A model generated the notes under the pieces. The model saw only the letters and a program-made list of their open reading frames with translations, was not told the DNA's origin and searched no databases. Shown one piece after another: positions 28,143-61,039 of a stretch of 64,000 nucleotides of DNA. Every line of letters starts with the position of its first letter. Positions within the stretch are counted from its first letter, which is position 1. The DNA is taken from contig ASNI01000004.1 of NCBI GenBank assembly GCA_000404785.1, positions 4,047 to 68,046 of the forward strand, written 5' to 3'. The DNA comes from Cloacimonetes bacterium SCGC AAA252-N17. Its GTDB lineage: Bacteria; Cloacimonadota; Cloacimonadia; JGIOTU-2. The position numbers and the translations under genes were made by a program.

Positions 28143-30266
28143 ATGAAAAAGAAAAAACGAGGACTACAAAAGCAAATTCTAGTTCTCTATTTTTTATTCA
28201 CCTTCTCCCTTGTATTCATTCTGATCTTCAGTGTCTGGCAGCTTACCAAGCTCGGTATTTCAGAATTTGAATATGAGAGAATTTCCCGTTTGCTTACAAA
28301 TCTGAAAACACTTCAACGCGATTATACAAACAAACTAAATAATTTTACCTCTGAAATCGCAAATAACCCGGCTCTTGTTGCTTCTGTAGAAAGTCAAGAC
28401 TTTGAATCTATTCATTCAATACTTAATTCCTATGACGACCATTCTCTTGCAAGCTACATGGCTATCTTTGATGCTAAAGGCACTATACTTTATGGCGAAC
28501 AATGGGAACTTGTCGAATCTTTTCTGCCGGAAATGCTCTCCTTAGCAAAACAGAATACAACTCAAGGTTTTTCTGCAAGTTTTTCAAACAAGATATTCTA
28601 CTTCTCTTACACTCCTCTTTATTCTGAAAATGATCAAGAGAAAACATTTTTAGGGCTTTTTATCAATGTAAATCAGATATCCCCTTCTGAAATTGGAGCA
28701 GCTCAGGATCCCCACATATTTCTTTTGCCTTTTTCTGTGCCACTCAATCCAGAGCAGGAGATCCTTAAAAAAATTATTCCCGAACTCGACAAAAAACTTC
28801 CAGCTGTTTTAAAAACTAAAAATCGCGAATCTGTTTTACGCTTGAATGTGGAAACTGCTGTTGGGTTGCTTGTCAATTATAATATATTCCGCGAACCTGC
28901 CTCACTCACTGTTTATATTTATGATCGCGAATTCAATAAATTTTATCGTCAAAGTATAGTCTTCTTCTTCCTTATCCTGGTTGCATCAAGCTTGGTTATT
29001 GTCAGTTTTTTAAGCAACTGGTTCAGCAAAAAAATAATGCAGCCCATAAAACAGGTAAGTGAAAAAATGCAGAGGATCGAGAAAAATCCTCTTGCCATTG
29101 AACATATTGAAGATGAATATGGCGGTGAGTTGAGCGATATGATTTCTGCATTCAGCTCGATGAACAGGTCGATTGTCGAATATAATAAATCTTTGCTCGA
29201 GTATAAAGTCCTTACTGATAATATTGACATCGGAGTGCTGTGGATGGACTCAAAGATGAATATCCTTATTTGTAATCCAAGTGCTATGGGCATTTTTGAG
29301 CTTATTTCTCTCGATGAGATCATCGGCAAGAATCTGTCCGAATTCATTCATCTTGATGAAGATCTATTATCCAAAGCCCATGAAGACAGCGTGACAATTC
29401 CTCAGCTCGAAATTAGTCTTCCCGGCAAAAAGAAGTTTGTAAAATTTGTTATCCTGAATATCAAAGCTGTTGATGATACGGTCGGCTTGCGCATGGTTGC
29501 AACTATAACCGACATAACACAAAAAATTAATGAAAAAAGAGCCCGTGAAACTCTTGAAAAAGCCCGTGAAGCTCTCGAAATGGAAGTCATAAAGAGTAAC
29601 AAATTCTCCGAGATCGGAAGAAGGGTCGAAGGTGTGGTGCACAATATGAACTCTCCGCTTAATTCTATCCTCGGGTATGCACAGCTTGTGAAAAAAGAAT
29701 ATCCTAATAATGACGATGTAGATAAGATTATTGAGGCAGCTAAAAATATTTCACAATCCATAAAAACCTTGTTACGAAAAGTGCAACAAGATAATATATC
29801 TATGATGCGACCAATTGACATTAACCAGCTTATTGAGCAGGAACTCGAACTTTTAAAACACAATCTTTTCTTCAAGCATTATGTTGTGTTAGAAAAAAGT
29901 CTTTTTAAAGATCTTCCAACCGTGAAAGCAGTATATAGCGATATAAGCCAGAGTTTTACTAACCTTGTAAATAATGCCATAGAGGCAATGCGGGATAGTA
30001 AAGAGCGCAATATTTGGGTGCGCACATATCAAACTTCTGACTTTATCGCAATAGAAGTACGCGATAGTGGAGAAGGAATTGAAGAGAGATATCATTCCAC
30101 GATATTTGAACCTTATTTTACATCGAAAAAGGAAAAAGAACAAGGCGGTTTTGGTCTTGGTCTTGCGATCTGTAAAAATGTTGTAGATCGCTATGGCGGT
30201 TATATTACAGTGCGCTCAGAACCGGGTAAAGGAAGCACATTTACAGTATTTCTTCCCTATGAATAA
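28143..30266 (+). CDS. Membrane sensor histidine kinase (PilS-like by context), with two TM helices flanking an extracytoplasmic sensor domain plus PAS, HisKA and HATPase domains
   Basis: TM helix 1 near the N-terminus, and TM helix 2 at about residue 280 (IVFFFLILVASSLVIVSF). PAS domain (ILICNPSAMGIFEL). H-box VHNMNSPLNSILGY. C-terminal G1/G2 boxes (DSGEGIEE…GGFGLGLAICK). Confidence 0.85.
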   Translation: MKKKKRGLQKQILVLYFLFTFSLVFILIFSVWQLTKLGISEFEYERISRLLTNLKTLQRDYTNKLNNFTSEIANNPALVASVESQDFESIHSILNSYDDHSLASYMAIFDAKGTILYGEQWELVESFLPEMLSLAKQNTTQGFSASFSNKIFYFSYTPLYSENDQEKTFLGLFINVNQISPSEIGAAQDPHIFLLPFSVPLNPEQEILKKIIPELDKKLPAVLKTKNRESVLRLNVETAVGLLVNYNIFREPASLTVYIYDREFNKFYRQSIVFFFLILVASSLVIVSFLSNWFSKKIMQPIKQVSEKMQRIEKNPLAIEHIEDEYGGELSDMISAFSSMNRSIVEYNKSLLEYKVLTDNIDIGVLWMDSKMNILICNPSAMGIFELISLDEIIGKNLSEFIHLDEDLLSKAHEDSVTIPQLEISLPGKKKFVKFVILNIKAVDDTVGLRMVATITDITQKINEKRARETLEKAREALEMEVIKSNKFSEIGRRVEGVVHNMNSPLNSILGYAQLVKKEYPNNDDVDKIIEAAKNISQSIKTLLRKVQQDNISMMRPIDINQLIEQELELLKHNLFFKHYVVLEKSLFKDLPTVKAVYSDISQSFTNLVNNAIEAMRDSKERNIWVRTYQTSDFIAIEVRDSGEGIEERYHSTIFEPYFTSKKEKEQGGFGLGLAICKNVVDRYGGYITVRSEPGKGSTFTVFLPYE

Positions 30267-30281
30267 AAGTGAAATAAAACC

Positions 30282-31712
30282 ATGAAAAATGATATAACCC
30301 AGACAGAATTCTTCAAACAAAATGCTAAAATTCTCATTGTAGATGATGAACAGGACACATTGGATATTTTTCGCCGTCATCTTGAGGATGAATACGATAT
30401 TGATACAGCCCGTTCTGCCGAAGAAGCACTTGAAAAGTTAGAGAGTAATACCTATCATATTGCAATGACTGATATGGTGATGCCGGGCACAGACGGTATC
30501 GAGCTTCTCACACATATAAAGAAGCGCTGGCCCCATGTTGCAGTGGTTATGATAAGTGGAAAAGCTACAATAGGAATGGCTGTCGAAGCCATGAAAACCG
30601 GGGCTGAAGAATTTATAGAAAAACCGGTAGAAGATCTCGATCTGCTGAAGATCATCATAAAAAAAATACTCAAAACAAAATGGCAGCATGAAGAAATTAA
30701 GCGACTGAGAAGCATACTTGCACACGAATTTGATAGAACACAGATCACCGGAAACAGTCTTATCATTCAAAAGGTTATGGAAAAAGTAAAAAGAATTGCC
30801 CCACTCGACACTACTGTTCTTATAACCGGCGAAACAGGCGTTGGTAAAGATATATTTGCCGATCTTATATATCTTAATAGTAAAAGAAAAACGCAAAAAT
30901 TTGTTGCGGTCAACTGCGGTAGTCTTCCTGAGAATCTTCTTGAAAGTATGCTTTTTGGTCATAAAAAGGGCTCCTTCACCGACGCGATAAGGGATAAAGT
31001 CGGCTACTTTCAGGAAGCAGACGGGGGTACGCTTTTCCTTGATGAAATAACAGAAACCAACAAAACCTTTCAGGTAAAACTTCTGCGCGTTCTTGAGAAA
31101 GGTGTGGTCAGACCGGTCGGTGGTGATATTGATATTGAAGTTAATGTGCGCATTATCACCTCTACAAATAAGGACATTGAAAAGGAAGTAAAATATGGCA
31201 ATTTCCGTCAGGATCTTTACTACCGCCTTAATGTAATTCACCTTCATATCCCACCTCTTCGTGAAAGGAGGGAGGATATTCCACTCCTCACCAACGTATT
31301 TGTTCGCGAATTTAGAGAGAAATATGATAAGCCAAACCTTGAAATATCAGATACTGTTATGTCTGTCCTTATCTCTCAAGAATGGGAAGGAAATGTTCGG
31401 GAGCTGAAAAATGCAATCGAGCATGCAGTTGCAATGGCTGCTCATAATAAAATTATTCCAGAGGATCTACCTGACCATATCTATCAAACTAGAATTTCTT
31501 CAAAAAATATGTCTGCACAAAATTTTATGCACCTGCCATTTGCTGAAGCAAAAGAAGAGTTTGAAAAATCGTACATCGAGGGATTAATAAAAAACTGTAA
31601 CGGTGATGTTACTAAAGCTGCAAATATTTCGCAGATAAAAAGACAAAATATTTACGATAAATTTAAAAAATATCATATTGATATTAACAGGTATAGAAAA
31701 AATAATAGTTAG
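30282..31712 (+). CDS. Sigma54-dependent response regulator (NtrC/PilR family enhancer-binding protein)
   Basis: REC domain (ILIVDDEQD…DMVMPG), an AAA+ sigma54-interaction domain (GETGVGKD…ESMLFGHKKGSFTDA…) with a GAFTGA-like loop, and a C-terminal HTH. Confidence 0.9.
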   Translation: MKNDITQTEFFKQNAKILIVDDEQDTLDIFRRHLEDEYDIDTARSAEEALEKLESNTYHIAMTDMVMPGTDGIELLTHIKKRWPHVAVVMISGKATIGMAVEAMKTGAEEFIEKPVEDLDLLKIIIKKILKTKWQHEEIKRLRSILAHEFDRTQITGNSLIIQKVMEKVKRIAPLDTTVLITGETGVGKDIFADLIYLNSKRKTQKFVAVNCGSLPENLLESMLFGHKKGSFTDAIRDKVGYFQEADGGTLFLDEITETNKTFQVKLLRVLEKGVVRPVGGDIDIEVNVRIITSTNKDIEKEVKYGNFRQDLYYRLNVIHLHIPPLRERREDIPLLTNVFVREFREKYDKPNLEISDTVMSVLISQEWEGNVRELKNAIEHAVAMAAHNKIIPEDLPDHIYQTRISSKNMSAQNFMHLPFAEAKEEFEKSYIEGLIKNCNGDVTKAANISQIKRQNIYDKFKKYHIDINRYRKNNS

Positions 31713-32402
31713 AGTTGTTGCAATCGTTGCGATTCAGTTACAATGGTGTATAAATACCAAATTACAAATATCAAATATCAAATAAAATTTCAAATTTCAA
31801 ATCAACATTTCTTAGAAGTCAGAAAATCGATTCTTAATATTGTAAAAATACAAGCACAAATTTGAATTGGATACATTGAATATTTGGACATTTTGGTTTT
31901 TTACCCCGTGAGATAAGCCTTTATCTAATTTTGGTTATTATTAATTCATATTTACCCCTGTTAGATAATTATATATAATGTTTTTGAAACAAGCTATAGA
32001 ATATCTATCTAACAGGGTTTATCTAACGGGGTGAATTTTATTTGAAATTAGTAATTCGTCCCCGCGTCTGCAGGGATAGAAATTATAGAATTTATTCTCT
32101 ACGAACATTAGCGTCATAAATATATGACATACATCCCTAATATGTAATTATTTTATGACAGAATATCATCCTAAAAATCTTAATGCATTCCAAACGAAGG
32201 CGTTGGGAATGAGTATAAAATAGTTTATTCCCGTTCTGGAGAACGGGAATCCAGATGGCTATATTTAGAGTGCAAAATGTGGAGTACTTCTCTCCTGAGA
32301 AGGTTATAATAAACCTTTGTATTATTTTCAAACAGGTTTACTTAAAAAAATAAAATTGATCTTGACAGAAAAAAAAATTTTTAAAAAAGTCAAATAAAAA
32401 TT

Positions 32403-32419
32403 TGGCATATAATTTGCAT
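32403..32419 (+). promoter_or_regulatory. Sigma54 (RpoN) -24/-12 promoter upstream of the pilin-like gene
   Basis: TGGCAT-N5-TTGCAT has exactly the consensus spacing (GG at 32404-05, GC at 32416-17). It lies about 80 nt upstream of the start codon and downstream of the gene for a sigma54-dependent activator. Confidence 0.8.
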
Positions 32420-32500
32420 TATATATTTATATTAATAAAAGATGTGAAAATTCCCCAATTCCCGTTTTTTACGGGAAAAAAATAATGTTAGGAGGATAAC

Positions 32501-32944
32501 ATGGGAATGCAACAAATACTGCTCATTGTATTGAGCGTAATTATCGTAGGTGCAGCTGTCGCTGTTGGTATTACGATGTTCAGTACCCAGGCTGTGAACG
32601 CAAACCGCTCGGCAGTTCTTATGGACCTGAACACCTTTGGTGCAGCAGCTATAGCATATTATAAGACACCTACTGACCAGGGCGGTGGCGGCCACTCTTT
32701 TGAGGCTTCTTGCGACTCAGTTGGATACTACCTCGCTAATAACTATAGTACGACTGGCAAAACAATTACCAATGATAATGGTGATGTCTATACGTTATCA
32801 ATTGACGGTGATAATCTAAAAATAGTTGGTGTGGGAACTGAAAAAGGAAGAAGCACGGTGGTTGGCTGTGGCGACAGAGTTGGTGGCACAATGACTATTG
32901 ACCCTGAGGCATCTGACCCGCTTGTTCTAACCCTTACTAATTGA
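32501..32944 (+). CDS. Small pilin-like protein (candidate major filament subunit). It has an N-terminal roughly 25-residue hydrophobic helix but no canonical prepilin leader.
   Basis: N-terminus MGMQQILLIVLSVIIVGAAVAVGITMF, followed by a small Gly/Thr-rich globular part. The RBS is AGGAGG at 32490-95. It is driven by the sigma54 promoter and followed by a strong terminator. It sits at the head of the pilC-pilB cluster. Confidence 0.55.
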   Translation: MGMQQILLIVLSVIIVGAAVAVGITMFSTQAVNANRSAVLMDLNTFGAAAIAYYKTPTDQGGGGHSFEASCDSVGYYLANNYSTTGKTITNDNGDVYTLSIDGDNLKIVGVGTEKGRSTVVGCGDRVGGTMTIDPEASDPLVLTLTN

Positions 32945-32986
32945 CAAGTAAGACAGCAGATAGTAAAAATCGCTGTTTGTAAAATT

Positions 32987-33029
32987 ATATGGGAGGTTGG
33001 AATTGATGCCTGCCTCCCATATTTTTCTT
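32987..33029 (+). terminator. Rho-independent terminator downstream of the pilin-like gene
   Basis: A 10-bp stem (atatgggagg … cctcccatat) followed by TTTTTCTT. Confidence 0.8.
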
Positions 33030-33091
33030 ATTTACAGATTCCATGACAGAATGGACCGTAACAACCATAGGTTAATAAAAAGTAAGTAGCT

Positions 33092-34444
33092 ATGTTAAAA
33101 GAATATCGCTATCAAGGTATATCACTTAGTGGTAAAACCATACAAGGTATAGTATTAGCACATAACAATTCAAAATCTAAAGAGTTAATTAAAGGGCTTG
33201 CTTCCAAACATAGATTACGAATCAATTCCATACTTCCTAAGAAAAAATTTATTTATGTAGTAAAGCTGCCAAATGGGAAGAAGATAAGAGGTAGGCAGGC
33301 AGCATTTACCAAGCAGGAAGTAGCAGATGCCCTTGCAAAGATTGGATATCATAATGCAAAAATCCAACCCGTTCTTTTTGATATAAAACGCAAGCCATCT
33401 TCTGCAGATATAATGATGTTTGTTAATCTTAGTTCATTCCTGTTAAAAGAAAAGATGGCGTATGACAAGATTCTTCGTATGTTGGCAGACGAAGAATCAA
33501 ATCCTACATTAAAGGAAACCCTAAAGAAGATTGAAAGCCAGTTAAAATCTGGCAAAGAAGGTTCAGAAGTTTTTGCACGCTTTTCTGATATTTTTGGGAA
33601 ATTCCCTGCTTATATGCTTGGCTTGGCAACCAAAAGTGGTAATATGGCAGAAGTCTACGATGCTACTGCAAAGTTCATGGAACGTGATCAGGAATATAAA
33701 AAAAGTATGAAACAAGCATTGATTGCTCCAGCTCTCACAGTATTGGCTACAATAGCAGCATGCGTATGGTATATTGTTTCTATTTTCCCGGCAACTGCAA
33801 ATCTATTTATCAAATTTAATATAGAAGTTCCCCCTATGACAGCAGCAACCTTAAGAATGAGTAATTATTTAGGGGCTAATTGGTGGCGGATGCTTCTTCT
33901 TATTATTATACCTGTAATGATAATTTTGCGATGGTGGAAAACTCCAAAAGGGATGGTATGGAGAGATAGGTTTTTAATTAAGTTACCAATTGTAGGACAT
34001 CTTTTGCATAAATCAAGCATTGAGATATTTTTTAGAGTTTTTTCTGCTATCTATGCAGGAGCGGCTGATAATATAGCGACATTACAAGCTTCTGCAGAAG
34101 CTTGCAGGAATGCTTACATGGAAAAAGGGGTTAAGGAGATAACAATTCCACTTATGCTGAAAGAAGGTATGTCATTAGTGCCAGCCCTTGCAACTGCCGA
34201 TGTTTTTAACAGAACCACATTAAGCAGGTTGAGAACAGGAGTAGAGACAGGGAATGTTCTGCAAGCTGCCCAGCAGATTGCCCTATTCTATGAAAAAGAA
34301 ACAACATACAAGATAAAGAATATAATTCAATATGTTCAGACTATAGTTGGTGCTTTTATAGCACTGGCAATTACCATCTTAACCATAGTTTCCGCAGAAG
34401 TTGCCTTTGTATCACCTCCCATACCGGGAATAAGTGGAATGTAA
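33092..34444 (+). CDS. pilC: Type IV pilus / type II secretion platform protein (PilC/GspF family)
   Basis: Two T2SS-F repeats, each followed by TM segments (…PAYMLGLATKSGNMAEVYD…, …LQASAEACRNAYMEKG…). Confidence 0.85.
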   Translation: MLKEYRYQGISLSGKTIQGIVLAHNNSKSKELIKGLASKHRLRINSILPKKKFIYVVKLPNGKKIRGRQAAFTKQEVADALAKIGYHNAKIQPVLFDIKRKPSSADIMMFVNLSSFLLKEKMAYDKILRMLADEESNPTLKETLKKIESQLKSGKEGSEVFARFSDIFGKFPAYMLGLATKSGNMAEVYDATAKFMERDQEYKKSMKQALIAPALTVLATIAACVWYIVSIFPATANLFIKFNIEVPPMTAATLRMSNYLGANWWRMLLLIIIPVMIILRWWKTPKGMVWRDRFLIKLPIVGHLLHKSSIEIFFRVFSAIYAGAADNIATLQASAEACRNAYMEKGVKEITIPLMLKEGMSLVPALATADVFNRTTLSRLRTGVETGNVLQAAQQIALFYEKETTYKIKNIIQYVQTIVGAFIALAITILTIVSAEVAFVSPPIPGISGM

Positions 34445-34567
34445 ATTAAGTCATTTGTAATTTGTAATTTATCCTCGTTCCCAATCCCCAATTGAATTGG
34501 GGATTGGGAACGAAGTGAATGGGTTACCAAACTGGATTTGGTAACCAGAAATGTAAAAAAGAAAAAT

Positions 34568-36352
34568 ATGTTAGGAAAATCAAGATTAGGTCAAGTTCTC
34601 ATTGAACGAGGAATAGTTGATAAAGAAACGCTTAATAAAGCATTTCTAATTCAAGCTGATGAGGATCCGGAAAATCCAAGAAGGTTAGAAGAGATTTTAG
34701 TTTCTGACCTCAAAGTAGACCATGATGCTATCTTTGGCTTATTAGCAGACCTTTATGCCTTCCGAACTATAAATATTGACCCCGAACAGGTAGATACGAA
34801 GCAGATAAAAAATACAAAAGAGATACTATCAAAATTTCCCGAAGATTTTAAAAGAGAACTAATATATAAAAAGGTTTTACCATATCAAATATCTTATGGT
34901 CGCAGGGATAAACTCCTGGTCTTATCTGCAAATCCTACTGAAAAAATTGTGGAAAAAATCCCTTTACTCACTGAGTTCAAAAAATATGAAGTAGTTTATT
35001 GTCGACTAAGGACTTTAGAGGAACTTATTGACCTGATAGCTCCGCAACAAAATGAGTTTCTAGAACTTTTAGAAGAGGCAAGCGAACAGATAGAAGAGGT
35101 AAGGGAGCCAGGACGCATAACAGGAATTGATGAATATGCATTAGATGACGAAATCAACAAAAGTCTTTTAGTAAATCTTTATGAAGGCTGCCTTATAGAA
35201 GCGGTACGAAAAGATGCGAGTGATATCCATATCATTCCATTTCAAAGGTCCAATGTAGATATCTATTTTAGGATTGATGGCAAGCTCCATCTCTGGCATC
35301 GTCAGGAAAATACCGAACCAGAAGCTATGGCAGCTGTAGTAAAAGACCGCACCACAGGGATTGATAGATTTGAAAGGGATACAGCACAGGATGGCTTTGC
35401 ACAACGAATCGTAGATGACCACCTGATTCGCTTCCGTGTCTCTGTACTGCCAATGATATCTCAAGAATACGAAAGAAGATTTGAGAGCATTGCAATCAGG
35501 GTGGTAGATGACAGGAAAGTTATCACAGATTTAAAAGAATTAGGATTTCAAAAACAAGCAGAAAAGGATTTTCTTAAAGCAATAAATACATCCAAGGGGA
35601 TTGTAATAGTTACAGGACCAACAGGTAGTGGAAAGAGTACAACCTTAATGGCTGCACTTTATCATGTGTTAGACCCCTCAAAAAATGTACTTACATGCGA
35701 AGACCCTGTAGAATATGTGATTAGAGGGGCAAGGCAGTTAAAAATTGGACATAAGCTTAGCTTTGAAAACGCAGTTCGTTCTATTCTAAGACATGACCCT
35801 GATATCGTTATGGTCGGTGAAATCAGAGATAAAATTACCGCTGATGTTGCGGTTAAACTTGCTAACACAGGTCATCTGACATTTTCTACACTTCATACCA
35901 ATGATGCACCAAGTGCCATATCAAGACTCTATAAAATGGGAGTAGAACCATTCCTCCTGGCTTATGCTATAAATATTATAGTAGCACAAAGACTCGTAAG
36001 AAAACTATGTCCACACTGCAAGAAACCATTATCTAAAGAAAAGTATCAAGCAGCTCTTGATTTAGGATTAACAGAAGAGGACTTAAAATCTGGTAAAATC
36101 TTTGAAGCTGGTAAAGGATGTAAAAAGTGCACAGAAGGATATAGGGGAAGAATCAATATCTGTGAAGCATTATATTTTAGCCCTGAGATAAGAAAATCTA
36201 TTGTGAAAGCTGGAACTGAGATTTATGAGGAAAAGATAAGACAAATTGCAGAAAGCCAGGGAATGTTATCACTTCGCCAATCTGGATTAGAAAGAATTAG
36301 AGAAGGGCTCACTACTATATCAGAAGTGGCTTATGCTACCTCAGAGGATTAA
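34568..36352 (+). CDS. pilB: Type IV pilus assembly / secretion ATPase (PilB/GspE family) with an N-terminal MshEN-like domain
   Basis: Walker A motif GPTGSGKSTT, the His box TLHTNDAPSAISRL, and a tetracysteine motif CPHC…CKKC. The N-terminus carries RLGQVLIERGIVDKETLNKAFLIQ (an MshEN RLGxxLxxxG motif). The ORF track starts at a TTG at 34538, but the ATG at 34568 is preferred. Confidence 0.9.
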   Translation: MLGKSRLGQVLIERGIVDKETLNKAFLIQADEDPENPRRLEEILVSDLKVDHDAIFGLLADLYAFRTINIDPEQVDTKQIKNTKEILSKFPEDFKRELIYKKVLPYQISYGRRDKLLVLSANPTEKIVEKIPLLTEFKKYEVVYCRLRTLEELIDLIAPQQNEFLELLEEASEQIEEVREPGRITGIDEYALDDEINKSLLVNLYEGCLIEAVRKDASDIHIIPFQRSNVDIYFRIDGKLHLWHRQENTEPEAMAAVVKDRTTGIDRFERDTAQDGFAQRIVDDHLIRFRVSVLPMISQEYERRFESIAIRVVDDRKVITDLKELGFQKQAEKDFLKAINTSKGIVIVTGPTGSGKSTTLMAALYHVLDPSKNVLTCEDPVEYVIRGARQLKIGHKLSFENAVRSILRHDPDIVMVGEIRDKITADVAVKLANTGHLTFSTLHTNDAPSAISRLYKMGVEPFLLAYAINIIVAQRLVRKLCPHCKKPLSKEKYQAALDLGLTEEDLKSGKIFEAGKGCKKCTEGYRGRINICEALYFSPEIRKSIVKAGTEIYEEKIRQIAESQGMLSLRQSGLERIREGLTTISEVAYATSED

Positions 36353-36355
36353 ATA

Positions 36356-36766
36356 ATGAATACAGGTCAGATGCTTGCTCTCATTTTTGCGATTGCACTT
36401 TTTGCCACTATTGTGATGACTGTAAACTACTCTCTGCTCAGTCAATCCGAACTGGTTTATAGGGGAATGTATATAACCCAGGGACAAAACATATCGGAGA
36501 AATACTTTGATAAAATAGAAGCGGAAGCTATAGTATCAAATCCACCAATAGTTCCATTTGATTTCATTGGAGCTAGTTATCCTAATACAACTGTTTCTCT
36601 GGGTAGTGTTAATTATGAAGTATATATCTCTACTCAATATACAGATTCATTAGGAACACCAATGGGATTTCCCACAGATTTTCAACGAGTAGATATTAAG
36701 ATATATTGTGTTGGATTACTCGACACAATAAGGTTCAACAGATTGTTTGGTAAGGTAGATTTATAG
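36356..36766 (+). CDS. Small pilin-like protein (candidate minor filament subunit) lacking a class III leader
   Basis: N-terminus MNTGQMLALIFAIALFATIVMTV. 136 aa. Translationally coupled 3 bp after pilB. Confidence 0.45.
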   Translation: MNTGQMLALIFAIALFATIVMTVNYSLLSQSELVYRGMYITQGQNISEKYFDKIEAEAIVSNPPIVPFDFIGASYPNTTVSLGSVNYEVYISTQYTDSLGTPMGFPTDFQRVDIKIYCVGLLDTIRFNRLFGKVDL

Positions 36767-36773
36767 GTGAGAG

Positions 36774-37346
36774 ATGAGTAGTTTATTAGATGCTATTGGT
36801 GCTGTGGCTATCGGTGGATTATTCTTGGTTACTATGTTTACCACCCTTTTTAATGTGCAGGTTACAGGTCAGAATATCGGTTTACAGGTAACACTTAATC
36901 AATGTGCTGATGTAATATGTGACGAACTGGATAATTATTTGGGAAAAGTTTGCATTGATGTGACTGGTTCCGGGTCTGATACAATAATGGTTGCTGCATC
37001 TGACTCTTTTAAGTTTTGCTCTAACTGGGATGTATTTGCTGATATTACTACCTCAAGTGAAAATGTAATAAAAATTGCTCTGGGAGATAGTACGCATATT
37101 GGCTACCCAATGGAAGTTACTCAAAATGGTATTTTAGTATCAGGTACTGATATACCACTCTGGTTGAAAAGTATGAAATTTACTTATTATGATGTGGATG
37201 AGAATGAAACATTTATCCTAAAGGACATCCGTTCTGTTAAAGTGGAGATGGAATTTTTCCATGAGGGCTCTTTAGTTGGGCCTGGCGAAAGAAATATAAA
37301 TACAAAAATTATCTTCTGGAAATATTTTAAAAATTTGTATCCATGA
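36774..37346 (+). CDS. Small pilin-like protein (candidate minor filament subunit)
   Basis: N-terminal single hydrophobic helix AIGAVAIGGLFLVTMFTTLF. 190 aa. Confidence 0.45.
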   Translation: MSSLLDAIGAVAIGGLFLVTMFTTLFNVQVTGQNIGLQVTLNQCADVICDELDNYLGKVCIDVTGSGSDTIMVAASDSFKFCSNWDVFADITTSSENVIKIALGDSTHIGYPMEVTQNGILVSGTDIPLWLKSMKFTYYDVDENETFILKDIRSVKVEMEFFHEGSLVGPGERNINTKIIFWKYFKNLYP

Positions 37347-37635
37347 TAAAGCAATTAACAATCAATCAATTAAAAGATTGACATAAATTTGGTAATTTTT
37401 ATCTATGTAGAGTTATTAGGCTAGGTTCGAGCTTATCCCGAACCCACGAAAATTAAAAGATGAACAGGATAAATTTGTTGGTGAATAATGTTTAAGAACC
37501 CAAAAGTATATTTAGTGTTTGTCCGTAAAATAAAAACCTTGGTATCCCAATATGTCGGGATGCAATGGTTGATTTGTTCATTATTTATTCCCTATATATC
37601 AGGGATAAATCTGATACAGCGAATAGGAGGATAAA

Positions 37636-38538
37636 ATGGGAAAGTCTTTATTTATAGGCGTCTTGGTACTTACAGTCATTTTTGCAGCAATTACTATCAC
37701 TGTACAAAGACATTCAAGTAAAGTTCCAGAAATGCTATCTGTGAACCTGGCTGAGCAGCAGGCAGCAAACCTTGCTGCTTATGCCTTAGGTTATGGTATA
37801 AATAAGCTTCTTGATGGTAATGTCACTTTTTGCGATAGTATAAATGGATATATTGATGATTTTACTCCATTAGAAGTTTTGGATGGTTCAATTGATAGCA
37901 TCAAATTTACTAATGAATCAGATGGTTCAATTCGTATTAACTCGTATGTAACTTATAATATCAATGATAAAACTGTTAATCACCAGAGTGAAGCAAATTT
38001 TTCATTCATTATTGATGATGAAGCTGAATCAAATATTACATCTGCTCTTGTTTATGGTGGCTCTATTACTATCCATGCAAAAGCTGTTATTACGGGAGAA
38101 TTAACTGAAACTACAGAATTTAATTTTGAAGAAGTGTTTGGACTAACTGAACAGGAAGTTAAGGATGAAGCAATAAGTAATGATGCATTTATTATAAATC
38201 CAGAAAATAATACACCAATGCCAGACAGCCTTACATGGATAGAATTTGAGGGGGGTGACAGCCTCTTCAAAATTACAAATGATTGGACTGGTGCTGGCAT
38301 ATTAATTATTAAGGGAAATCTAAAGTGTACGGCACACACAACTTTTAATGGCATTCTGGTTGTCTTTGGTACATTAGACATTACAGCACATTCAAATATT
38401 ACTGGTTCTGTGTTTGTCGTGGGTGATACCAGTTTGGGAGCTCATGCTACTATTACTTTTGATGGTGATATAGTGGCTACAGCTTTGGAAAGTTTACCGT
38501 TTAATGTTTCTTGCAAGATTATCAGCTGGAAAGAATAA
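37636..38538 (+). CDS. Pilin-like or secreted protein with an N-terminal hydrophobic helix (a larger candidate minor pilin or tip protein)
   Basis: N-terminus MGKSLFIGVLVLTVIFAAITITV. 300 aa. RBS AGGAGG. Confidence 0.45.
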   Translation: MGKSLFIGVLVLTVIFAAITITVQRHSSKVPEMLSVNLAEQQAANLAAYALGYGINKLLDGNVTFCDSINGYIDDFTPLEVLDGSIDSIKFTNESDGSIRINSYVTYNINDKTVNHQSEANFSFIIDDEAESNITSALVYGGSITIHAKAVITGELTETTEFNFEEVFGLTEQEVKDEAISNDAFIINPENNTPMPDSLTWIEFEGGDSLFKITNDWTGAGILIIKGNLKCTAHTTFNGILVVFGTLDITAHSNITGSVFVVGDTSLGAHATITFDGDIVATALESLPFNVSCKIISWKE

Positions 38539-38644
38539 TAAAAAATTTTATTCCCTTATAAGCTTATTGAATTCGTAATACGGGTTGGTGCAGAATGTTG
38601 TGATAACCTATAATATTAATAATAGTATATTAAAGAGGAAAAAA

Positions 38645-39556
38645 ATGGATAAATTACAATTTACTGAAACAGAAAAAAGTATGTACAATTGGTGGTCAAA
38701 AATCCGCTGGTTTATGGTAATTATCCTTTTTGCCATAGGTGTTTTGCGGGTTCAGCAAACTCCACAGACCTATCCGATTATTATCTTTGTTATTGTATTT
38801 TTGGGAATATGTATCTTAAATCTTCTTTTTCATTTGCAAATTATTAAGACCACTAACATTATTGGAGCGTTTCAAATCGTTCTGGATATTGTATTTGCTA
38901 CCATGGTTGTTCATTTGACTGGTGGGCTTGAAAGTTCTTTTGTATGGATTTACCTAATAGGAGTGATTACTGCCAGTTTGGCATTAACAAAATCGGGCGG
39001 CTTTATCGCAGCCTCGATAGGTGGTATGTGTCTATTGGTGTTGATTCTTTTTTATAATTTTAAATGGCTGATTCCAGTTAATGGTTCGGCTTTTGATGTT
39101 GATATATCGTCACAGACCATCTTTCTGATTTCCTATGTAGGTCTTTTTACTACCATAGCCTTTATTGCGAATTTTATTAGTGATATGGTAAGAAACCTTT
39201 CATGGGAAGTTCGGACTAATGAGGAGAAATTTAGCCAGCAAGAAAATACACTATTGGAAATGCAAAAAGAAATCGTTGAAAATAAGAAAGACATTGGAAA
39301 GTATAAAGAAGTTGTTAAAACAGCCGCTTCACTCGCTGGCATAGACCATGACATAAATAATCCCCTTAGTGTTATTTCTTTGTCATTAAGCAGGGTAAAA
39401 AAAGCTGCTGCGGAATATGAGGACGAAAAACTTGCTAAGACTGGCAATCAAATAACAGAAGCTATCAATAGAATAAATAGTATACTAACAAGATTGCAAG
39501 AGTTAAAAAAGTTAGAATTAATTAAAGAGGAAAGAAAAAAGCAAAAACAGGATTAA
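38645..39556 (+). CDS. Six-TM membrane sensor with a HisKA phosphoacceptor domain but no catalytic HATPase domain
   Basis: Six hydrophobic helices and then IDHDINNPLSVISLSL (an H-box). The protein ends in a coiled coil with no N/G1/G2 boxes. The start is taken at MDKLQF, which has an RBS. Confidence 0.6.
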   Translation: MDKLQFTETEKSMYNWWSKIRWFMVIILFAIGVLRVQQTPQTYPIIIFVIVFLGICILNLLFHLQIIKTTNIIGAFQIVLDIVFATMVVHLTGGLESSFVWIYLIGVITASLALTKSGGFIAASIGGMCLLVLILFYNFKWLIPVNGSAFDVDISSQTIFLISYVGLFTTIAFIANFISDMVRNLSWEVRTNEEKFSQQENTLLEMQKEIVENKKDIGKYKEVVKTAASLAGIDHDINNPLSVISLSLSRVKKAAAEYEDEKLAKTGNQITEAINRINSILTRLQELKKLELIKEERKKQKQD

Positions 39557-39560
39557 TACT

Positions 39561-40415
39561 ATGAAAAAAAATATTTTAATCGTTGATGATGAACAAAATA
39601 TAAGAGAACTTTGTAAAGAGTTTCTTGAGGAAGAGGGATATAAGGTTTCGCTTGCTGTTGATGGTCAAGACGCTTTAGATAAAATGGAATATGATGATTT
39701 TGATCTATTTCTTGTTGATATGGCTATGCCCCGTATGGGTGGATTTGAATTAATGAAGATGATTAAGAAGAAACAACCCTTTGCGGTGATAATTATATTG
39801 ACCGGCTTTCCCAGTATTGAGGATGCGGTCAGGACGATCCGTGCTGGTGCATTTCACTACATAACCAAGCCTACTAATGCAGAGGAACTTCTTGAGGTTG
39901 TTAAAAAAGGATTAGAATATTCAGAAGATTTATATGGTCCTCTTCAAAAAGTCTTTGAACCTTTGTCAGAAACCGTCCACAAAAGAGGCCCAATTATATT
40001 GCATGGATTTTCTCCTGAAGATAAAACAGATTTTCTATCCTTGGGCAGCCTGTGTGAATATGATGTTGGCGTAAACATTCCTATAGGTGATAAAAAATCT
40101 GGTTCAATTATTTTAGTTGATCGCGGTGAAGTCTCAGTTTGGCTTAATAATACAATTGTAGATTATCTCCAAAAATGGGATACATATGGTGAGGAACGCC
40201 TTATTTTAGCTGAATCTTTAATTACTAAACTTCGTGCTGAAACTGCTGTTAGGGTTAGATATTTTGACCGTAAAAAGATGTTAGATTTCTTTGCATACAA
40301 AGGTGAAAAATTGATGAAAAGATTTATGATTAATCTTATAAATTGTACATTTTCCAAATGGCGTAAATCCATTCAAAGAATTGTTATGCTGAAACTTGTT
40401 ACTGGAGAAAAGTGA
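39561..40415 (+). CDS. Response regulator whose receiver domain is fused to a C-terminal domain of unknown function (possibly PilZ-like)
   Basis: REC domain ILIVDDEQN…DLFLVDMAMP…ITKP. The C-terminal roughly 150 aa show no clear motif. Confidence 0.7.
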   Translation: MKKNILIVDDEQNIRELCKEFLEEEGYKVSLAVDGQDALDKMEYDDFDLFLVDMAMPRMGGFELMKMIKKKQPFAVIIILTGFPSIEDAVRTIRAGAFHYITKPTNAEELLEVVKKGLEYSEDLYGPLQKVFEPLSETVHKRGPIILHGFSPEDKTDFLSLGSLCEYDVGVNIPIGDKKSGSIILVDRGEVSVWLNNTIVDYLQKWDTYGEERLILAESLITKLRAETAVRVRYFDRKKMLDFFAYKGEKLMKRFMINLINCTFSKWRKSIQRIVMLKLVTGEK

Positions 40416-41088: not shown

Positions 41089-42306
41089 ATGAGCCTATCT
41101 TTTACCCCTGAAATGTTAGTAGGATTACCAGAATATTTAACTGGCACAAGTAGATTCCAGAACATTAACAAAATTATTACTTATAATGCAACCTGGAGAA
41201 AAGAAGCTTACGACAACCTAAAAAAATTACTCAAGCATATGCGAGAAATAAACGCCTCTGATATAGATTTAGGCGGACCTGGCGCAAAGAGACAAATCTG
41301 GTATAGAGTCTATGGGAAAAAATCTCCACATCAGGATATGCCTTCATACACTAATGATGAAGTTACCGCTATATTATTAAGTGTATTGTCCGATGAACAG
41401 AAAATAACACTTTTCAAAAACAAAAATGTAGACCTCTCTGTAGGAATGGTATTAGAAAAGGGGGAAGAACCCAGCCGGTTCCGTAGCGATATCTATTATG
41501 AAAGTAATGTTTTAGTAGCAAACTTCAGACGCATCAACCAAGAACTATTTACAATACAATCTTTAAACTTTCCCGAATCAATTATCAAAAGATTAGACCT
41601 CCAATATGAAAAATCTGGTCTAATTTTAGTAACAGGAATCACAGGCTCAGGAAAAAGTTGCACATTAGACTCTATTATAGATATGAATAATCACAACAAT
41701 AACTCCCATATTGTAATTATTGGAAATCCAATTGAATATATCCACCAATCAGATAAATGTATTATTAGACATAGGGAAGTTGGTGAAGATGTATTAAATT
41801 TTAGAGAAGGAACAATACAAGCATTAAGACAGGACCCTGATATAATTGTTGTTGGAGAAATGCGAGACCCTGAAACAATTGCTACAGTTCTTGAAGCCAC
41901 TGATAGCGGTCATAAGTGTTTTACTACCTTACATACAAGTTCAGCAGTTGATAGTATGCATAGAATTATTGCTGAATTTCCTCCAAACGAGCAAGATAGA
42001 ATAAGGATAAGACTGGCAGATACCTTGAAAGTGATTATCTCTCAAAAATTAGTTCCAAATAAGCAAGGCAAGCTAACATTAGCAAAAGAGATTCTTTCTG
42101 TAGATGCATCTGTGTCCGCTGCAATAAGAAATAAAAATATCAACGAAATATATCAGATGATTACTGAAGGTAAAAGAAAAGGTATGATAACCCTTGAACA
42201 AGACCTATTTAATCTATGTAAAACCAATATAATAACAAAAGAAACAGCTATGAACTTTTCAAATAACAGAAAGAGAATGGAGCAGTTGTTAACTTACTCA
42301 AAATAG
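41089..42306 (+). CDS. pilT: Type IV pilus retraction ATPase (PilT/PilU family) with an N-terminal extension of about 60 aa
   Basis: Walker A motif GITGSGKSCT, the motif VGEMRDPETI, and the His box TLHTSSAVDSMHRIIAEFP. Confidence 0.85.
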   Translation: MSLSFTPEMLVGLPEYLTGTSRFQNINKIITYNATWRKEAYDNLKKLLKHMREINASDIDLGGPGAKRQIWYRVYGKKSPHQDMPSYTNDEVTAILLSVLSDEQKITLFKNKNVDLSVGMVLEKGEEPSRFRSDIYYESNVLVANFRRINQELFTIQSLNFPESIIKRLDLQYEKSGLILVTGITGSGKSCTLDSIIDMNNHNNNSHIVIIGNPIEYIHQSDKCIIRHREVGEDVLNFREGTIQALRQDPDIIVVGEMRDPETIATVLEATDSGHKCFTTLHTSSAVDSMHRIIAEFPPNEQDRIRIRLADTLKVIISQKLVPNKQGKLTLAKEILSVDASVSAAIRNKNINEIYQMITEGKRKGMITLEQDLFNLCKTNIITKETAMNFSNNRKRMEQLLTYSK

Positions 42307-42317
42307 ATTCCTAAATA

Positions 42318-44399
42318 ATGAAATTTAAAAAAGAGAAATTAGCATTTGGTATTTCCCAGGATGGATTATCAATTAAAGTTGCTCAACTTGCTTTAGAAAA
42401 TGGTAAAATAAAGATACAGCGTTTAGAAGAGACTGAACTTTCATGTTCTCTATACCCAAAAGAAATCACTGAAGAAGAAAAGAAATCCGCATTAAAAGAA
42501 TCAGAGTTTACTGACTTAGAAGAGGAAGAGCTAAATATTCCGGAAATCTCAGAATTTGATGAAAAAGAAAGTTTTGAAGAAATTGAAAAAGAAAAAGCAA
42601 TATCAGGGCAAAATGACTTACAAAAATTACTTCTTAAATTTCCTATAGAAAAAGGCAAGATTGCCCTCAATGCAAACGAAGAACAAATTTCATATAAGCA
42701 ATTTGATGAAATACCTACAGCAAAGATAAAAAAGAGAATCAAATCAGAATTTTTATCCAAAGAAGAAATCCAATCCAAAGATTATGAGTTAAGTTATATA
42801 TTAAATCCTGATAAAACTATTCTGGCTTTTGTGCATCGTGGTAAGTTTGAACTTCTTAATGCCTTGCAGGATATTAATCTTGTTATTTCAAAAAGGAAAT
42901 TCTTTTATAGCTTTATAGATACAAATGAAATCTCACTAATGAATTTAGTCAGAACTTGCTATGACTTTCCTCCAGAGGATTATGTGTTGATTTTGTACAT
43001 TGGTATTGATTATAGAGTGGGAATTGTAATGAAAGGTGGCAGCTATGTAAAAACCTTTCCAATTATTGTTACGCAAACTGATTTAGAGGGAATTAAGAAG
43101 GCAATTTATTCAAAAGTTATATTGGAACAGGATGTATCGGGCATTCCAATAACTCAGCATTTAGTCATGGCTGGGAAAAACATACTTGATGAAGATGTTG
43201 AATATTTTAAGAAAAATCTAAAACCTAAATCAACAGTTTGCCGTTTAGATTTAAAGAATATTGATATTTCGGAAATCAAGAGTGATGAGCAACTATCAAA
43301 AAAAATTGCAAGATTTGCAATACCAATTGCACTTGCATGGAAGACATTAGAACCAAAAAATAAAGATTTTTTCCCAAGCAATCTTCTTCTATCAAAGATA
43401 ATTGAAAGGCAAAAGCATTTTAAAATTTCCTGGCACGGATTGCTTGTATTAGCAGCTATTTTCTATTTTTCACTAACTGGCACTATTAAACATCAGGATC
43501 TCAGCCAGAAAATCATTGAAGCTAGAACACAGAACTATAATATAGAGGTAGAACTTCGGAAAAACAGAAATATACTTGCAAAACTAAATGAAGTCAAAAA
43601 TCAAATATCTACTTTGCAACAGAATGAAGGAAAAACCGAGAGGATAATTGGCAACAAAAATCAATGGTATTATATATTAAATACGCTTTCAAACTTTCTA
43701 TTAGAAAATAAAATAAGCTGGATAACAAGCTTGAATAGTAGAGAAGATAATTTTCAAATCTCAGGCTATACAACTCAAAGGAGAAATATTATTGGCTTTT
43801 CAGAACTATTCCCTAATGGCAGAATTATTGAAGTTACAAGTTATTTAATACAGGAATTTCCCATCTGGAAATTTGTTATGGTCTTTTCGTATCCAAATCC
43901 TGAAGATACTAAAAAAGAAGAAGAAAATTTATCTAAAATTTACATAGCTGAAGTAACGGAAAAACCATCAGAACCAGAACCTGTAACCAAAGAACCAATT
44001 AAACCTGAGATTTATAAAGAAGATTCTAAAAAAGATAAATTAAAAATTTATAACTCTATTACAAAATTATATTTTGCAAGTAATTTAAAAGAAGCATACG
44101 AAAGGTTTAAAGAATTTGTTTTAGAATACCCTGAGTATAAATATTCTTATAATGCTAACTATCTTATGGGGGAATGCTTGTATCTAATGGGTAAAATATC
44201 AGAAGCAAAAGCAATTTTTGAAAGAACTCTTACACTTGGAGGAACAAAAACTCCTGATGCACTTATGATGCTGGGAAACTCATATAAAAAAGAAAATAAT
44301 ATAGAAAAAGCAAATCATTACTGGAACCAGCTAATAAAGAATTTTCCCAATAATAGATTAGCTAAAATCGCAAAAAACAAAATCATAGAGAATATGTAA
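42318..44399 (+). CDS. PilM-like (actin-fold) and PilN-like (TM plus coiled coil) fusion protein with a C-terminal TPR domain
   Basis: N-terminus KLAFGISQDGLSIKVAQLALENGKIKI, typical of PilM. A single TM helix at about residue 370 is followed by a coiled coil. The C-terminus has TPR repeats (YNANYLMGECLYLMGKISEAKAIFERTL…). Confidence 0.55.
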   Translation: MKFKKEKLAFGISQDGLSIKVAQLALENGKIKIQRLEETELSCSLYPKEITEEEKKSALKESEFTDLEEEELNIPEISEFDEKESFEEIEKEKAISGQNDLQKLLLKFPIEKGKIALNANEEQISYKQFDEIPTAKIKKRIKSEFLSKEEIQSKDYELSYILNPDKTILAFVHRGKFELLNALQDINLVISKRKFFYSFIDTNEISLMNLVRTCYDFPPEDYVLILYIGIDYRVGIVMKGGSYVKTFPIIVTQTDLEGIKKAIYSKVILEQDVSGIPITQHLVMAGKNILDEDVEYFKKNLKPKSTVCRLDLKNIDISEIKSDEQLSKKIARFAIPIALAWKTLEPKNKDFFPSNLLLSKIIERQKHFKISWHGLLVLAAIFYFSLTGTIKHQDLSQKIIEARTQNYNIEVELRKNRNILAKLNEVKNQISTLQQNEGKTERIIGNKNQWYYILNTLSNFLLENKISWITSLNSREDNFQISGYTTQRRNIIGFSELFPNGRIIEVTSYLIQEFPIWKFVMVFSYPNPEDTKKEEENLSKIYIAEVTEKPSEPEPVTKEPIKPEIYKEDSKKDKLKIYNSITKLYFASNLKEAYERFKEFVLEYPEYKYSYNANYLMGECLYLMGKISEAKAIFERTLTLGGTKTPDALMMLGNSYKKENNIEKANHYWNQLIKNFPNNRLAKIAKNKIIENM

Positions 44400-44401
44400 T
44401 T

Positions 44402-45274
44402 ATGCCATATGTAATTAGAAATACAATCGTTTTAGCAGTTTTACTGTTAATTGTTTTATTTGTAAGTATTATCGGAAATGCAAATTCGGTAAGAAAATTT
44501 GAAGAGGCAAAGAAATCATACAATGAGAAAGTAAAAATGTTAGAAACCCTCAAGAGAACCGATCCTGATATAAAAGATGAAGCTCGAATTATAAAAGAGC
44601 TTGAGAATATGCAAAAAAAAGCACTTGAAAGCAATAAAGTTATACTGAAAGATGATAATCCGACTCTTTCATATCAATATTTGATTGGTATTTGTGATAA
44701 TTTTTGCCCTGATGTTAATTTTAACTTCCGAACTGCAGGTTCAGGCCAAATGGAAGACATTTCTTTCAATACATATAACATCTCTGGAGATGCTAATATA
44801 GAATCTCTTCATTTTTTTATTTATCAAATTGAATATCAGCCCCCACTTTATACAGTTGAATCTATCAAGCTTTCTGAACAATCGGTAGCTATGGCTGATA
44901 CAGTAAATTTTATGCTTGTTTTACGAGCATATTTTAATGACAATGGAACTAAATTAAAAGATATACCAATGAGAAGTTTTAGATTTACAAATCTAACATA
45001 TAACCCATTTTATTCCAGAATTCACGAGCCTATATTAAATATGGAAGAGGAAAAATATCTTAATGTGTATACAGCATCAATGATAGGTTTAACTCCGAAT
45101 AGAGTATTTTTGCGCGATGAAAATGGAAAAATTAATACTCTCACTCCGGGATACAAAGTTGCTTATGGCTATCTGGATCATATCAACTGGAATAAACAAG
45201 CTGCTGTATTTAAGATAAATCGTATCGGAATCTCAGAGAAAAAAATTATATATATCGAGGGTGATACACAATGA
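44402..45274 (+). CDS. PilO/PilN-like inner-membrane pilus alignment protein
   Basis: N-terminal TM helix (IVLAVLLLIVLFVSIIG), then a coiled coil and a periplasmic domain. Its position between the pilM/N gene and the secretin gene supports the call. Confidence 0.5.
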   Translation: MPYVIRNTIVLAVLLLIVLFVSIIGNANSVRKFEEAKKSYNEKVKMLETLKRTDPDIKDEARIIKELENMQKKALESNKVILKDDNPTLSYQYLIGICDNFCPDVNFNFRTAGSGQMEDISFNTYNISGDANIESLHFFIYQIEYQPPLYTVESIKLSEQSVAMADTVNFMLVLRAYFNDNGTKLKDIPMRSFRFTNLTYNPFYSRIHEPILNMEEEKYLNVYTASMIGLTPNRVFLRDENGKINTLTPGYKVAYGYLDHINWNKQAAVFKINRIGISEKKIIYIEGDTQ

Positions 45275-60764: not shown

Positions 60765-61039
60765 GGGTGTGCTAGGCGGGAAGCCAGCGGTGTCCTGTAA
60801 CCTGCAATCCGCTATAGCAGGGCTGAATTCCAATCTGCGAGATTTGATGTCTGTCTGTGTGGTATACAAGTGGCGTTGAGAGTCAAGTCTAACGCAATCG
60901 GGCTCTGCGAATCTTGTCAGGACCGGAAGGTAGCAGCAATAAGCAGTTCGTCTGATGTGCCGTTAGCAATCTTGGCTTGAGCTAACTACATAGTGCCTTT
61001 CAGAATAGAATTTCAACGTGCGGTGCACACCCATTTTTT
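60765..61039 (+). ncRNA. ffs: Signal recognition particle RNA, long Bacillus-type form with an Alu domain
   Basis: The domain IV motif GTCAGGACCGGAAGGTAGCAGCAATAAGCAG matches the SRP RNA helix 8 consensus. The 5' part (GGGTGTGCTAGGCGGGAAGCCAGCGGTGTCCTGTAACCTGCAATCCGCTATAGCAGGGCTGAATTCC) closely matches the Bacillus scRNA Alu domain. The termini pair with each other (gggtgtgc…gtgcacaccc) and are followed by a T-run. Confidence 0.88.

Follow-up and report, generated by a model that had tools for sequence, protein, structure and literature searches.

Four putative pilin genes without a prepilin leader in a type IVa pilus gene cluster of the Cloacimonadota

In this study, we analysed a 64-kb stretch of DNA from Cloacimonetes bacterium SCGC AAA252-N17 (the window), in which a single plus-strand gene cluster for a type IV pilus extends from 26.4 to 46.5 kb. 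Four genes of this cluster, here called open reading frames (ORFs) 1 to 4, encode small proteins with a hydrophobic segment almost directly at the N-terminus. Together they probably make up the subunits of a type IVa pilus under sigma-54/PilSR control in a Cloacimonadota bacterium, with ORF1 as major pilin, ORF2, ORF3 and ORF4 as GspI-, GspJ- and GspK-like (PilV/W/X-like) members of a priming or tip complex, and ORF4-type proteins as modular pilins with adhesin-type C-terminal modules. We further put forward, as a tentative and somewhat doubtful proposal, that Cloacimonadota and a few related lineages of the Fibrobacteres-Chlorobi-Bacteroidetes (FCB) group build pili from subunits which are translated already in 'mature' form, with no class III leader and no cleavage by a prepilin peptidase. 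In that case the initiator Met would be residue +1, and the retained prepilin peptidase PilD would have taken on another role, such as methylation alone.

The four reading frames and their N-termini are exactly those given in an earlier note on this DNA, which had been made from the sequence alone (Table 1). That note had also reported the lack of a hydrophilic leader, and this lack is genuine and lineage-wide: the hydrophobic stretch begins at residue 5–6 in all four proteins, only 1–4 uncharged residues precede it (with Gly2 in ORF1 and ORF4 and Gly4 in ORF2), and in-frame stops preclude longer ORFs. In the window, an in-frame TAG (32489–32491) is located three codons 5′ of the ORF1 start codon ATG (32501), a consensus Shine-Dalgarno sequence AGGAGG (32490–32495) lies 5 nt before this ATG, and an in-frame TGA is found two codons upstream of the ATG of ORF3. 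For comparison, 85 loci with about 1.19 Mb in total were used, comprising the window's own locus and its relatives; six were obtained by exact protein look-up (the window's locus in other assemblies and one relative) and 79 by a scan with one genome per species. The longest possible ORFs were taken from these loci, allowing ATG, GTG and TTG as starts, and distinct homologues were counted. The conserved Met was the first possible start after the stop in 80 of 91 homologues of ORF1, 42 of 42 of ORF2, 41 of 48 of ORF3 and 50 of 56 of ORF4 (213 of 237 for the four families together). Across the families, the median distance from stop to Met was 1–7 codons and thus leaves no room for a leader. The earlier note had named a normal class III signal in homologues as an outcome that would speak against its proposal; in most homologues of the 85 loci, the upstream stops leave no space for one. 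That the starts are mis-called and the true proteins have a normal leader is therefore as good as impossible. A few database entries, e.g. P0003 and P0164, do have N-terminal extensions, but these are not conserved, and this explanation was rejected because of the upstream in-frame stops and the conserved first Met.

In line with the missing leader, Pfam and NCBIfam prepilin models gave no match to any of the four ORFs, even at E-values up to 1–10. The proteins lack the leader of the type IV pilin class (IPR012902 / TIGR02532 / PF07963) and possess its other mark, a highly conserved hydrophobic alpha1N segment of 20–25 residues. A type I (Sec) signal has a positively charged n-region, an h-region of 7–15 residues, an AxA cleavage site and little conservation. 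Judged by eye, the N-termini do not resemble it either, since ORF1–3 have no charge in the n-region, the h-region spans about 22 residues and conservation is extreme.

By its model ORF1 is a pilin, and probably the major one. Its predicted structure is a lollipop fold, in which about 53 residues form the alpha1 helix and 4–5 strands the sheet, and about 30 of the top 60 structural matches were pilins or pseudopilins, including GspK (score 7.7), PilE (7.6), TTHA1222, a Shewanella pilin, gonococcal pilin (6.7) and PAO1 PilA (6.5). An N-terminal helix on a beta-sheet, which the earlier note had proposed to look for, is accordingly present in the models of ORF1 and also of ORF3. At the sequence level, the ORF1 profile gave only weak matches to Geobacter PilA (E 0.28–0.75) among PDB sequences, besides a match to RavD that was taken as chance. 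In an alignment of 36 family members, residues 4–17, 19, 22–24 and 26–27 were invariant (MG[TM]QQILLIVLSVIIVG.A..VGI.MF), while the remainder averaged about 50% identity to the window's protein; an invariant N-terminus with a diverging head is the classic conservation pattern of pilins. The profile alignments started at residue 1 in nearly all among the 150 matches listed. The leaderless set spans a large family: a word-indexed search with ORF1 gave 341 matches, and an exhaustive profile search gave 1,799 clusters at 50% identity with E ≤ 0.001 (1,071 with E ≤ 1e-10).

The expression signals of ORF1 are also those expected of a major pilin gene, as indicated by a sigma-54 site, a hairpin followed by a T-run and tandem paralogues in one relative. 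A sigma-54 promoter-like site was found at most 250 nt upstream in 70 of 104 ORF1 homologues, at a median of 76 nt before the start, compared to a background of 0.029 per 250 nt. Four 13-nt elements, located about 370–500 nt 5′ of the ORF1 promoter, may be enhancer sites for the adjacent PilR-like activator. The hairpin 3′ of ORF1, which is absent from the terminator-scan list because of its long loop, is likely a terminator or attenuator. The relative with the tandem arrangement (L005:9532–10913, on a 1.88-Mb contig) carries three tandem ORF1 paralogues of 147 aa and no ORF4 gene; IS21-family transposase genes and five DUF559 genes lie upstream.

As modelled, ORF3 is a minor pilin of the GspJ/PilW class, with an alpha1 helix and a two-sheet head of GspJ type. 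Its best structural match was a Thermus pilus minor pilin, and GspJ, XcpW and EpsJ were matched as well. For ORF2 and ORF4, gene order, size and N-termini suggest a GspI-like and a GspK/PilX-like class, respectively. The sizes of 136, 190 and 300 aa in the order after pilB mirror GspI-GspJ-GspK and PilV-PilW-PilX, and ORF4, like a GspK/PilX cap subunit, is the last and largest of the set and has an N-terminal region free of acidic residues. Of the 85 loci, 48, 54 and 47 carry homologues of ORF2, ORF3 and ORF4, respectively; these follow pilB in every locus whose gene order was inspected, with ORF2 between PilB and ORF3. ORF4 homologues often occur as 2–3 tandem paralogues sharing an N-terminal module of about 120 residues that starts with MG[KR], in which G2 is invariant and K/R3 nearly so. 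ORF4 itself weakly matched bactofilin, DUF2572, DUF7305 and PilX_N, the latter two below threshold, and Pfam scans of all ORF2-family members gave only noise. Longer ORF4 paralogues (L064:16737–19135, L080:6641–7840, L045:14914–16101 and L011:15723–16895) combine the MG[KR] module with a ConA-like Laminin_G_3 domain (up to 47 bits, Pfam cut-off 27.6), which suggests that the larger paralogues could be glycan-binding tip pilins.

The gene order ORF1, pilC, pilB, ORF2, ORF3, ORF4 had been claimed before and was borne out by gene calls and family models. The complete cluster consists of two-component genes, a histidine kinase, a sigma-54 regulator, ORF1, PilC, PilB, ORF2-3-4, a PilS-type sensor, a regulator, an intervening-sequence (IVS) gene, PilT, PilM/N with a tetratricopeptide repeat (TPR) part, PilO and PilQ (Table 1). 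With PilB, PilC, PilT, PilQ and PilMNO, the components of a type IVa machine are represented: PilT exceeds the curated cut-off, the best scores of PilB and PilQ are those on type IVa pilus models but stay below the equivalog cut-offs, and the PilMN- and PilO-like proteins are putatively assigned by weak matches and position. For the platform protein, GspF models give slightly higher scores than PilC models. The PilM/N-like protein ends in a YbgF/CpoB-like TPR region (TIGR02795, 3.9e-20) and weakly matches the Akkermansia Amuc_1101 PilM-like family. PilB probably starts at the ATG at 34568, as in the public assemblies (594 aa in L001).

Table 1. Features of the pilus gene cluster in the window.
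Feature	Position	Strand	Basis or remark
Sensor histidine kinase, PilS position, 5′ of sigma-54 activator	28143..30266	+	HisKA/HATPase matches; putative role, from position
Sigma-54-dependent response regulator, PilR-like enhancer-binding protein	30282..31712	+	NtrC-family matches E 1e-110; Response_reg + Sigma54_activat + HTH_8
13-nt element, four copies, TTATCTAAC(A/G)GGG or complement	31903..32031	.	repeat scan; putative function
Sigma-54 -24/-12 promoter-like site TGGCATATAATTTGCA, 83 nt 5′ of ORF1 start	32403..32418	+	sole match in window
ORF1, 147 aa, major pilin (as modelled) without leader, MGMQQILLIVLSVIIVGAAVAVGITMF..., Q at position 5	32501..32944	+	
Hairpin (TGGGAGG...CCTCCCA) followed by T-run, 3′ of ORF1	32990..33029	+	read from sequence
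PilC/GspF-family platform protein	33092..34444	+	T2SSF 6.6e-24; GspF/PilC models
PilB extension ATPase	34538..36352	+	T2SSE 2e-98; best NCBIfam match TIGR02538 type IV-A PilB, 5.7e-121
ORF2, 136 aa, putative GspI/PilV-class minor pilin without leader, MNTGQMLAL..., Q5 here, E5 in other clades	36356..36766	+	
ORF3, 190 aa, GspJ/PilW-class minor pilin (as modelled) without leader, MSSLLDAIGAVAIGG..., D at position 6	36774..37346	+	
ORF4, 300 aa, putative GspK/PilX-like modular minor pilin, MGKSLFIGVLVL..., no acidic residue near N-terminus, beta-helix-like C-terminal part	37636..38538	+	
PilS-type sensor with six transmembrane segments (6TM), HisKA present, no ATPase (HATPase) domain	38585..39556	+	PF25323 6TM_PilS + HisKA; weak histidine-kinase matches
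Response regulator, receiver domain + uncharacterised C-terminal part	39561..40415	+	Response_reg matches
PilT retraction ATPase	41089..42306	+	TIGR01420 pilT_fam 321.4 bits, cut-off 319.1
PilM/PilN-like alignment protein with C-terminal TPR (YbgF-like) fusion	42318..44399	+	TPR matches; weak Amuc_1101 PilM-like match; putative PilM/N role, from position
PilO/GspM-like bitopic protein	44402..45274	+	weak GspM match E 0.004; putative, from position
PilQ secretin	45271..46482	+	Secretin 1.2e-27; best NCBIfam match TIGR02515 PilQ

The family N-termini are M-G-[T/M]-Q-Q-I-L-L-I-V for ORF1 (polar residue Q5), M-N-M-M-E-M-V-L, M-N-T-G-Q-M-L-A or M-N-I-Q-M-L-L for ORF2 (E5, Q5 or Q4; alignment pattern M-x-x-x-[E/Q]-M-[VLI]-L), M-S-S-L-L-D-A-I-G or M-A-A-I-L-E for ORF3 (D/E6) and M-G-[K/R]-x-x-L-I for ORF4 (no polar residue). 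Compared with the canonical mature F-T-L-I-E-L-M-I-V, they resemble mature pilins in which the initiator Met takes the +1 position; in ORF3, Met would stand at -1 or, if counted as +1, leave the acidic residue at +6. Alignments with hhalign among the four families gave only low-probability N-terminal alignments and were uninformative except that, at low probability, Met1 and Q5 of ORF2 were placed on Met1 and Q5 of ORF1. The earlier statement that Glu5 is missing holds in the window, where ORF1 and ORF2 have Q5, ORF3 has D6 and ORF4 has none; E5 occurs in other clades of the ORF2 family (MNMMEM). In type IV pilins at large, Glu at mature position 5 is frequent but not universal. The statement that a Gly at -1 is missing needs to be qualified, since Gly2 is near-invariant in ORF1 and ORF4 and Gly4 is found in ORF2 of the window's clade, and both could formally be the -1 Gly after a leader of 2–4 residues.

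A search for a prepilin peptidase confirmed that pilD is absent from the window and extended this to all 85 loci. The GxGD(xK) motif is absent from all stop-to-stop frames of at least 100 aa in the window, no A24-like ORF with this motif occurs in the 85 loci, and no A24 peptidase is encoded within 10 kb of any pilin locus among them. A canonical prepilin motif (G|F-T-L-I-E type; regular expression of the G|[F..]-x-[LIV]-x-E type) was not found in the window, and the approximately 1.19 Mb of loci gave only spurious internal matches. On the scale of the phylum, the available part of the supplement to ISME J 2026 wrag055 lists K02654 (pilD) in 451–475 of 558 Cloacimonadota genomes (71–93% per habitat group, by KEGG orthology annotation), so a prepilin peptidase is usually encoded elsewhere in the genome. 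The same part gives K02650 (pilA) as 0% in two habitat groups and K02456 (gspG) as about 1%; pilE, pilV and pilW do not appear in it, and cpaA, tadV, comGC and pilO are likewise missing from the portions consulted, which is a weak negative. The earlier note had deduced from the missing pilD that the subunits insert without leader processing. The lack of the leader stands; the deduction about processing was not established, since the wrag055 supplement annotates pilD in most genomes. With pilD present and almost no annotated canonical substrate, either a minimal leader is cleaved off after Gly2 or Gly4, or there is no cleavage and PilD only methylates or serves unannotated substrates.

In the mechanism considered likeliest, the subunits would be made in 'mature' form and inserted via the signal recognition particle (SRP) and Sec as N-in signal anchors. 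Processing would be limited to deformylation and excision of Met, for which Gly2 is the best context. In canonical type IV pilins, a hydrophilic leader with positive charge precedes alpha1N. Here the initiator Met would occupy the mature +1 position or the one before it, with the polar residue 4–6 residues in: Q in ORF1, E/Q in ORF2 and D/E in ORF3; ORF4 shares with cap pilins the lack of such a residue. Gln5 in place of Glu5 in the major pilin may reflect that there is no free charged amine at the N-terminus to neutralise. PilB and PilC would then extract the subunits from the membrane and polymerise them through PilQ, with an ORF2-ORF3-ORF4 complex priming the fibre, and PilT would retract it. 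The PilD homologue elsewhere in most genomes of the phylum would act as N-methyltransferase, trim at most Met-Gly or serve other substrates.

Several observations weigh against this proposal. A pilD annotation in such a large share of the genomes, as far as the wrag055 supplement was accessible, means that the prepilin peptidase has been kept and presumably finds substrates. A vestigial leader ending with Gly -1 would fit the near-invariance of Gly2 in the families of ORF1 and ORF4 and the Gly4 before Q5 in part of the ORF2 family. Apart from K/R3 in ORF4, the N-termini carry no positive charge to enforce an N-in topology. Finally, the profiles of ORF2 and ORF4 found no pilin among PDB sequences, and the classes of these two are putative. 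The main alternative is that of ordinary prepilins with an extremely short leader. An unlinked PilD would cut ORF1 and ORF4 behind Gly2, so that fMet-Gly is lost, and ORF2 behind Gly4, and would then methylate the new N-terminus; assembly would still depend on the peptidase, with a minimal class III signal. With pilA and gspG almost absent in several habitat groups in the accessible part of that supplement, the present pilins would be obvious substrates for the widespread PilD, Gly2 is invariant or nearly so in two of the families, and a leader "invariably ends with Gly or Ala" (PMC10191384). However, many homologues of ORF2 (MNIQML, MNMMEM) and ORF3 (MSSLLD, MNILID, MITLLE) offer neither Gly nor Ala where a cut could be made, and cleavage after Gly2 or Gly4 would shift the conserved Q/E to +1 to +3, whereas uncleaved proteins have Q/E at 5 (ORF1, ORF2) and D/E at 6 (ORF3), like mature pilins. 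Moreover, an uncharged leader of two residues could provide neither a positive-inside signal nor a block on premature assembly, and none of the 85 loci has a peptidase gene linked to it. We regard such a short leader as rather unlikely and slightly favour no cleavage; independence of the pili from PilD is unproven, and removal of the two residues MG is possible.

Two further explanations concern the nature of the proteins themselves. The set could encode pseudopilins of a type II secretion-like system, i.e. a short periplasmic piston and no surface pilus, as might be read from the matches of ORF3 to GspJ/XcpW/EpsJ and from the slight preference of the platform protein for GspF models. The GspJ match does not discriminate, since GspIJK and PilVWX are homologous sets, and the best match of ORF3 is a pilus minor pilin of Thermus. 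PilT above its family cut-off, an extension ATPase scoring best on type IV-A PilB and a secretin scoring best on PilQ point to a pilus, as do the highly variable ORF1 head and the tandem paralogues, which are typical of surface-exposed major pilins; we therefore consider a piston improbable. It is more improbable still that the cluster position of ORF2 and ORF4, or of all four, is incidental and that they are unrelated small proteins, either bitopic in the membrane or secreted with an ordinary Sec signal. ORF2–4 do lack Pfam, NCBIfam and PDB sequence matches to pilins, and ORF4 is missing from some related clusters such as L005. Against this stand the modelled pilin folds of ORF1 and ORF3, the recurrence of ORF2 in 48 and of ORF3 in 54 of the 85 loci, directly after pilB wherever inspected, and the conserved E5 or Q5 of ORF2. 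Ordinary signal peptides were rejected because of these folds and because the hydrophobic segments, about 22 residues from residue 5–6 without a charged n-region, are far more conserved than the rest of the proteins and, in length as well, unlike cleavable signal peptides.

Compared to known systems, ORF1 shares with type IVa major pilins (PilA/PilE, e.g. Thermus thermophilus PilA4/PilA5, Pseudomonas aeruginosa PilA and Neisseria gonorrhoeae PilE) the lollipop fold, the invariant alpha1N with a variable head, sigma-54/PilSR-type control, the pilC/pilB neighbourhood and, in relatives, tandem paralogues. It differs in its start without hydrophilic leader (MG[TM]QQ), in Gln replacing Glu at position 5 and in lacking both a match to prepilin N-terminal models and an adjacent pilD. 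ORF3 shares with GspJ/XcpW/EpsJ/PilW and Thermus TTHA1219 the length of about 190 aa and the position between genes for a GspI-size and a GspK-size subunit, but has no leader, Asp/Glu at position 6 counted from Met1 and no detectable sequence similarity. Like GspK/PilX cap subunits and modular pilins (Streptococcus sanguinis PilB and PilC with adhesin or lectin modules), ORF4 has no acidic N-terminal residue, is the product of the largest and last gene and has paralogues with ConA-like lectin modules; it differs in its MGK start without leader, and the window copy has a beta-helix-like C-terminal region (weak bactofilin/DUF2572 matches). As here, Glu5 is missing from the major subunit of archaeal type IV pilins and archaellins, and two members of the ORF4 family weakly match Pilin_N. 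The archaeal subunits, however, keep a charged leader that is cleaved by PibD, FlaK or EppA, whereas the machinery here is that of a bacterial type IVa pilus with PilQ and PilT. The Geobacter PilA-N 'e-pilin' is weakly matched by the ORF1 profile in alpha1, but ORF1 lacks a canonical N-terminus and carries a full globular head, about 90 residues long. E-pili have been suggested for Cloacimonetes in reviews (PMC8892533), and nothing in the present data bears on conductivity. In the formal definition, a class III signal peptide (SPIII) is a hydrophilic leader ending with G/A plus a hydrophobic stretch, its cleavage by a dedicated peptidase is treated as the obligatory first assembly step, and a cap subunit without an acidic residue near the N-terminus is known (PMC10191384). 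Measured against the formal definition, the subunits lack the leader, matches to the hidden Markov models and largely also Glu5; by fold, context and regulation, the system is a type IVa pilus with a GspIJK-like minor set.

As type IV pilins are defined by the class III signal, nature offers, in a whole pilin set without leader and with Gln5 in its major subunit, an experiment on three long-standing questions, namely the functions of the leader, of N-methylation and of the salt bridge between Glu5 and the N-terminus. If translation in mature form is true, these pili would be the first natural example of a type IV filament made of subunits that skip the defining step of processing. A literature search revealed nothing relevant on the N-terminal motif or on pilins that are leaderless or independent of the peptidase; publications on Cloacimonadota refer to genes for type IV pili and discuss e-pili speculatively, and leaderless subunits are not noted in them. 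All four proteins are labelled "hypothetical protein" in NCBI, IMG and UniParc. Since they are invisible to detection of the PilFind/InterPro type, pilus inventories of the Cloacimonadota miss subunits, which touches arguments on 'e-pili' and direct interspecies electron transfer (DIET) for anaerobic digesters; pilA was scored as 0% in two habitat groups.

Regarding distribution, the identical ORF1 protein is present in three NCBI assemblies (GCA_000493925.1, GCA_000397825.1 and GCA_000397905.1), and the source name of ORF1 homologues, wherever given, is Candidatus Cloacimonadota or Cloacimonetes. ORF1-family genes were also found in single metagenome-assembled genomes labelled Latescibacterota, Neomarinimicrobiota and Calditrichaeota (L049, L055 and L083), with ORF2–4 homologues as well in L055. 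These occurrences could be due to a wider distribution in the FCB group or to binning errors. N-termini of other kinds also precede an ORF1-type head: in P0173, a 462-aa Ser/Thr-kinase-like protein comes before the membrane segment 'QQVLLALMGIVIVGV' and the head, P0169 and P0178 are lipoprotein-like fusions, and P0237 has three tandem heads. Such fusions may be real domain shuffling or fusions made by gene calling.

The gap between ORF3 and ORF4 (37347–37635) comprises 289 non-coding nt with a short inverted repeat GGTTCGAGCTTATCCCGAACC (about 37424–37444) and a strong ribosome binding site before ORF4, which may be transcribed separately. The HATPase-less sensor (38585–39556) adjoins a response regulator and comes on top of the complete pair of kinase and sigma-54 activator upstream. 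Between this response regulator and pilT, a gene of the 23S rRNA-intervening-sequence family (four-helix bundle; 40539–40946) occurs, at the same place in other assemblies with the locus. An Rfam scan detected no RNA element near the pilus cluster; elsewhere in the window, a bacterial large SRP RNA was found at 60767–61030 (168.6 bits).

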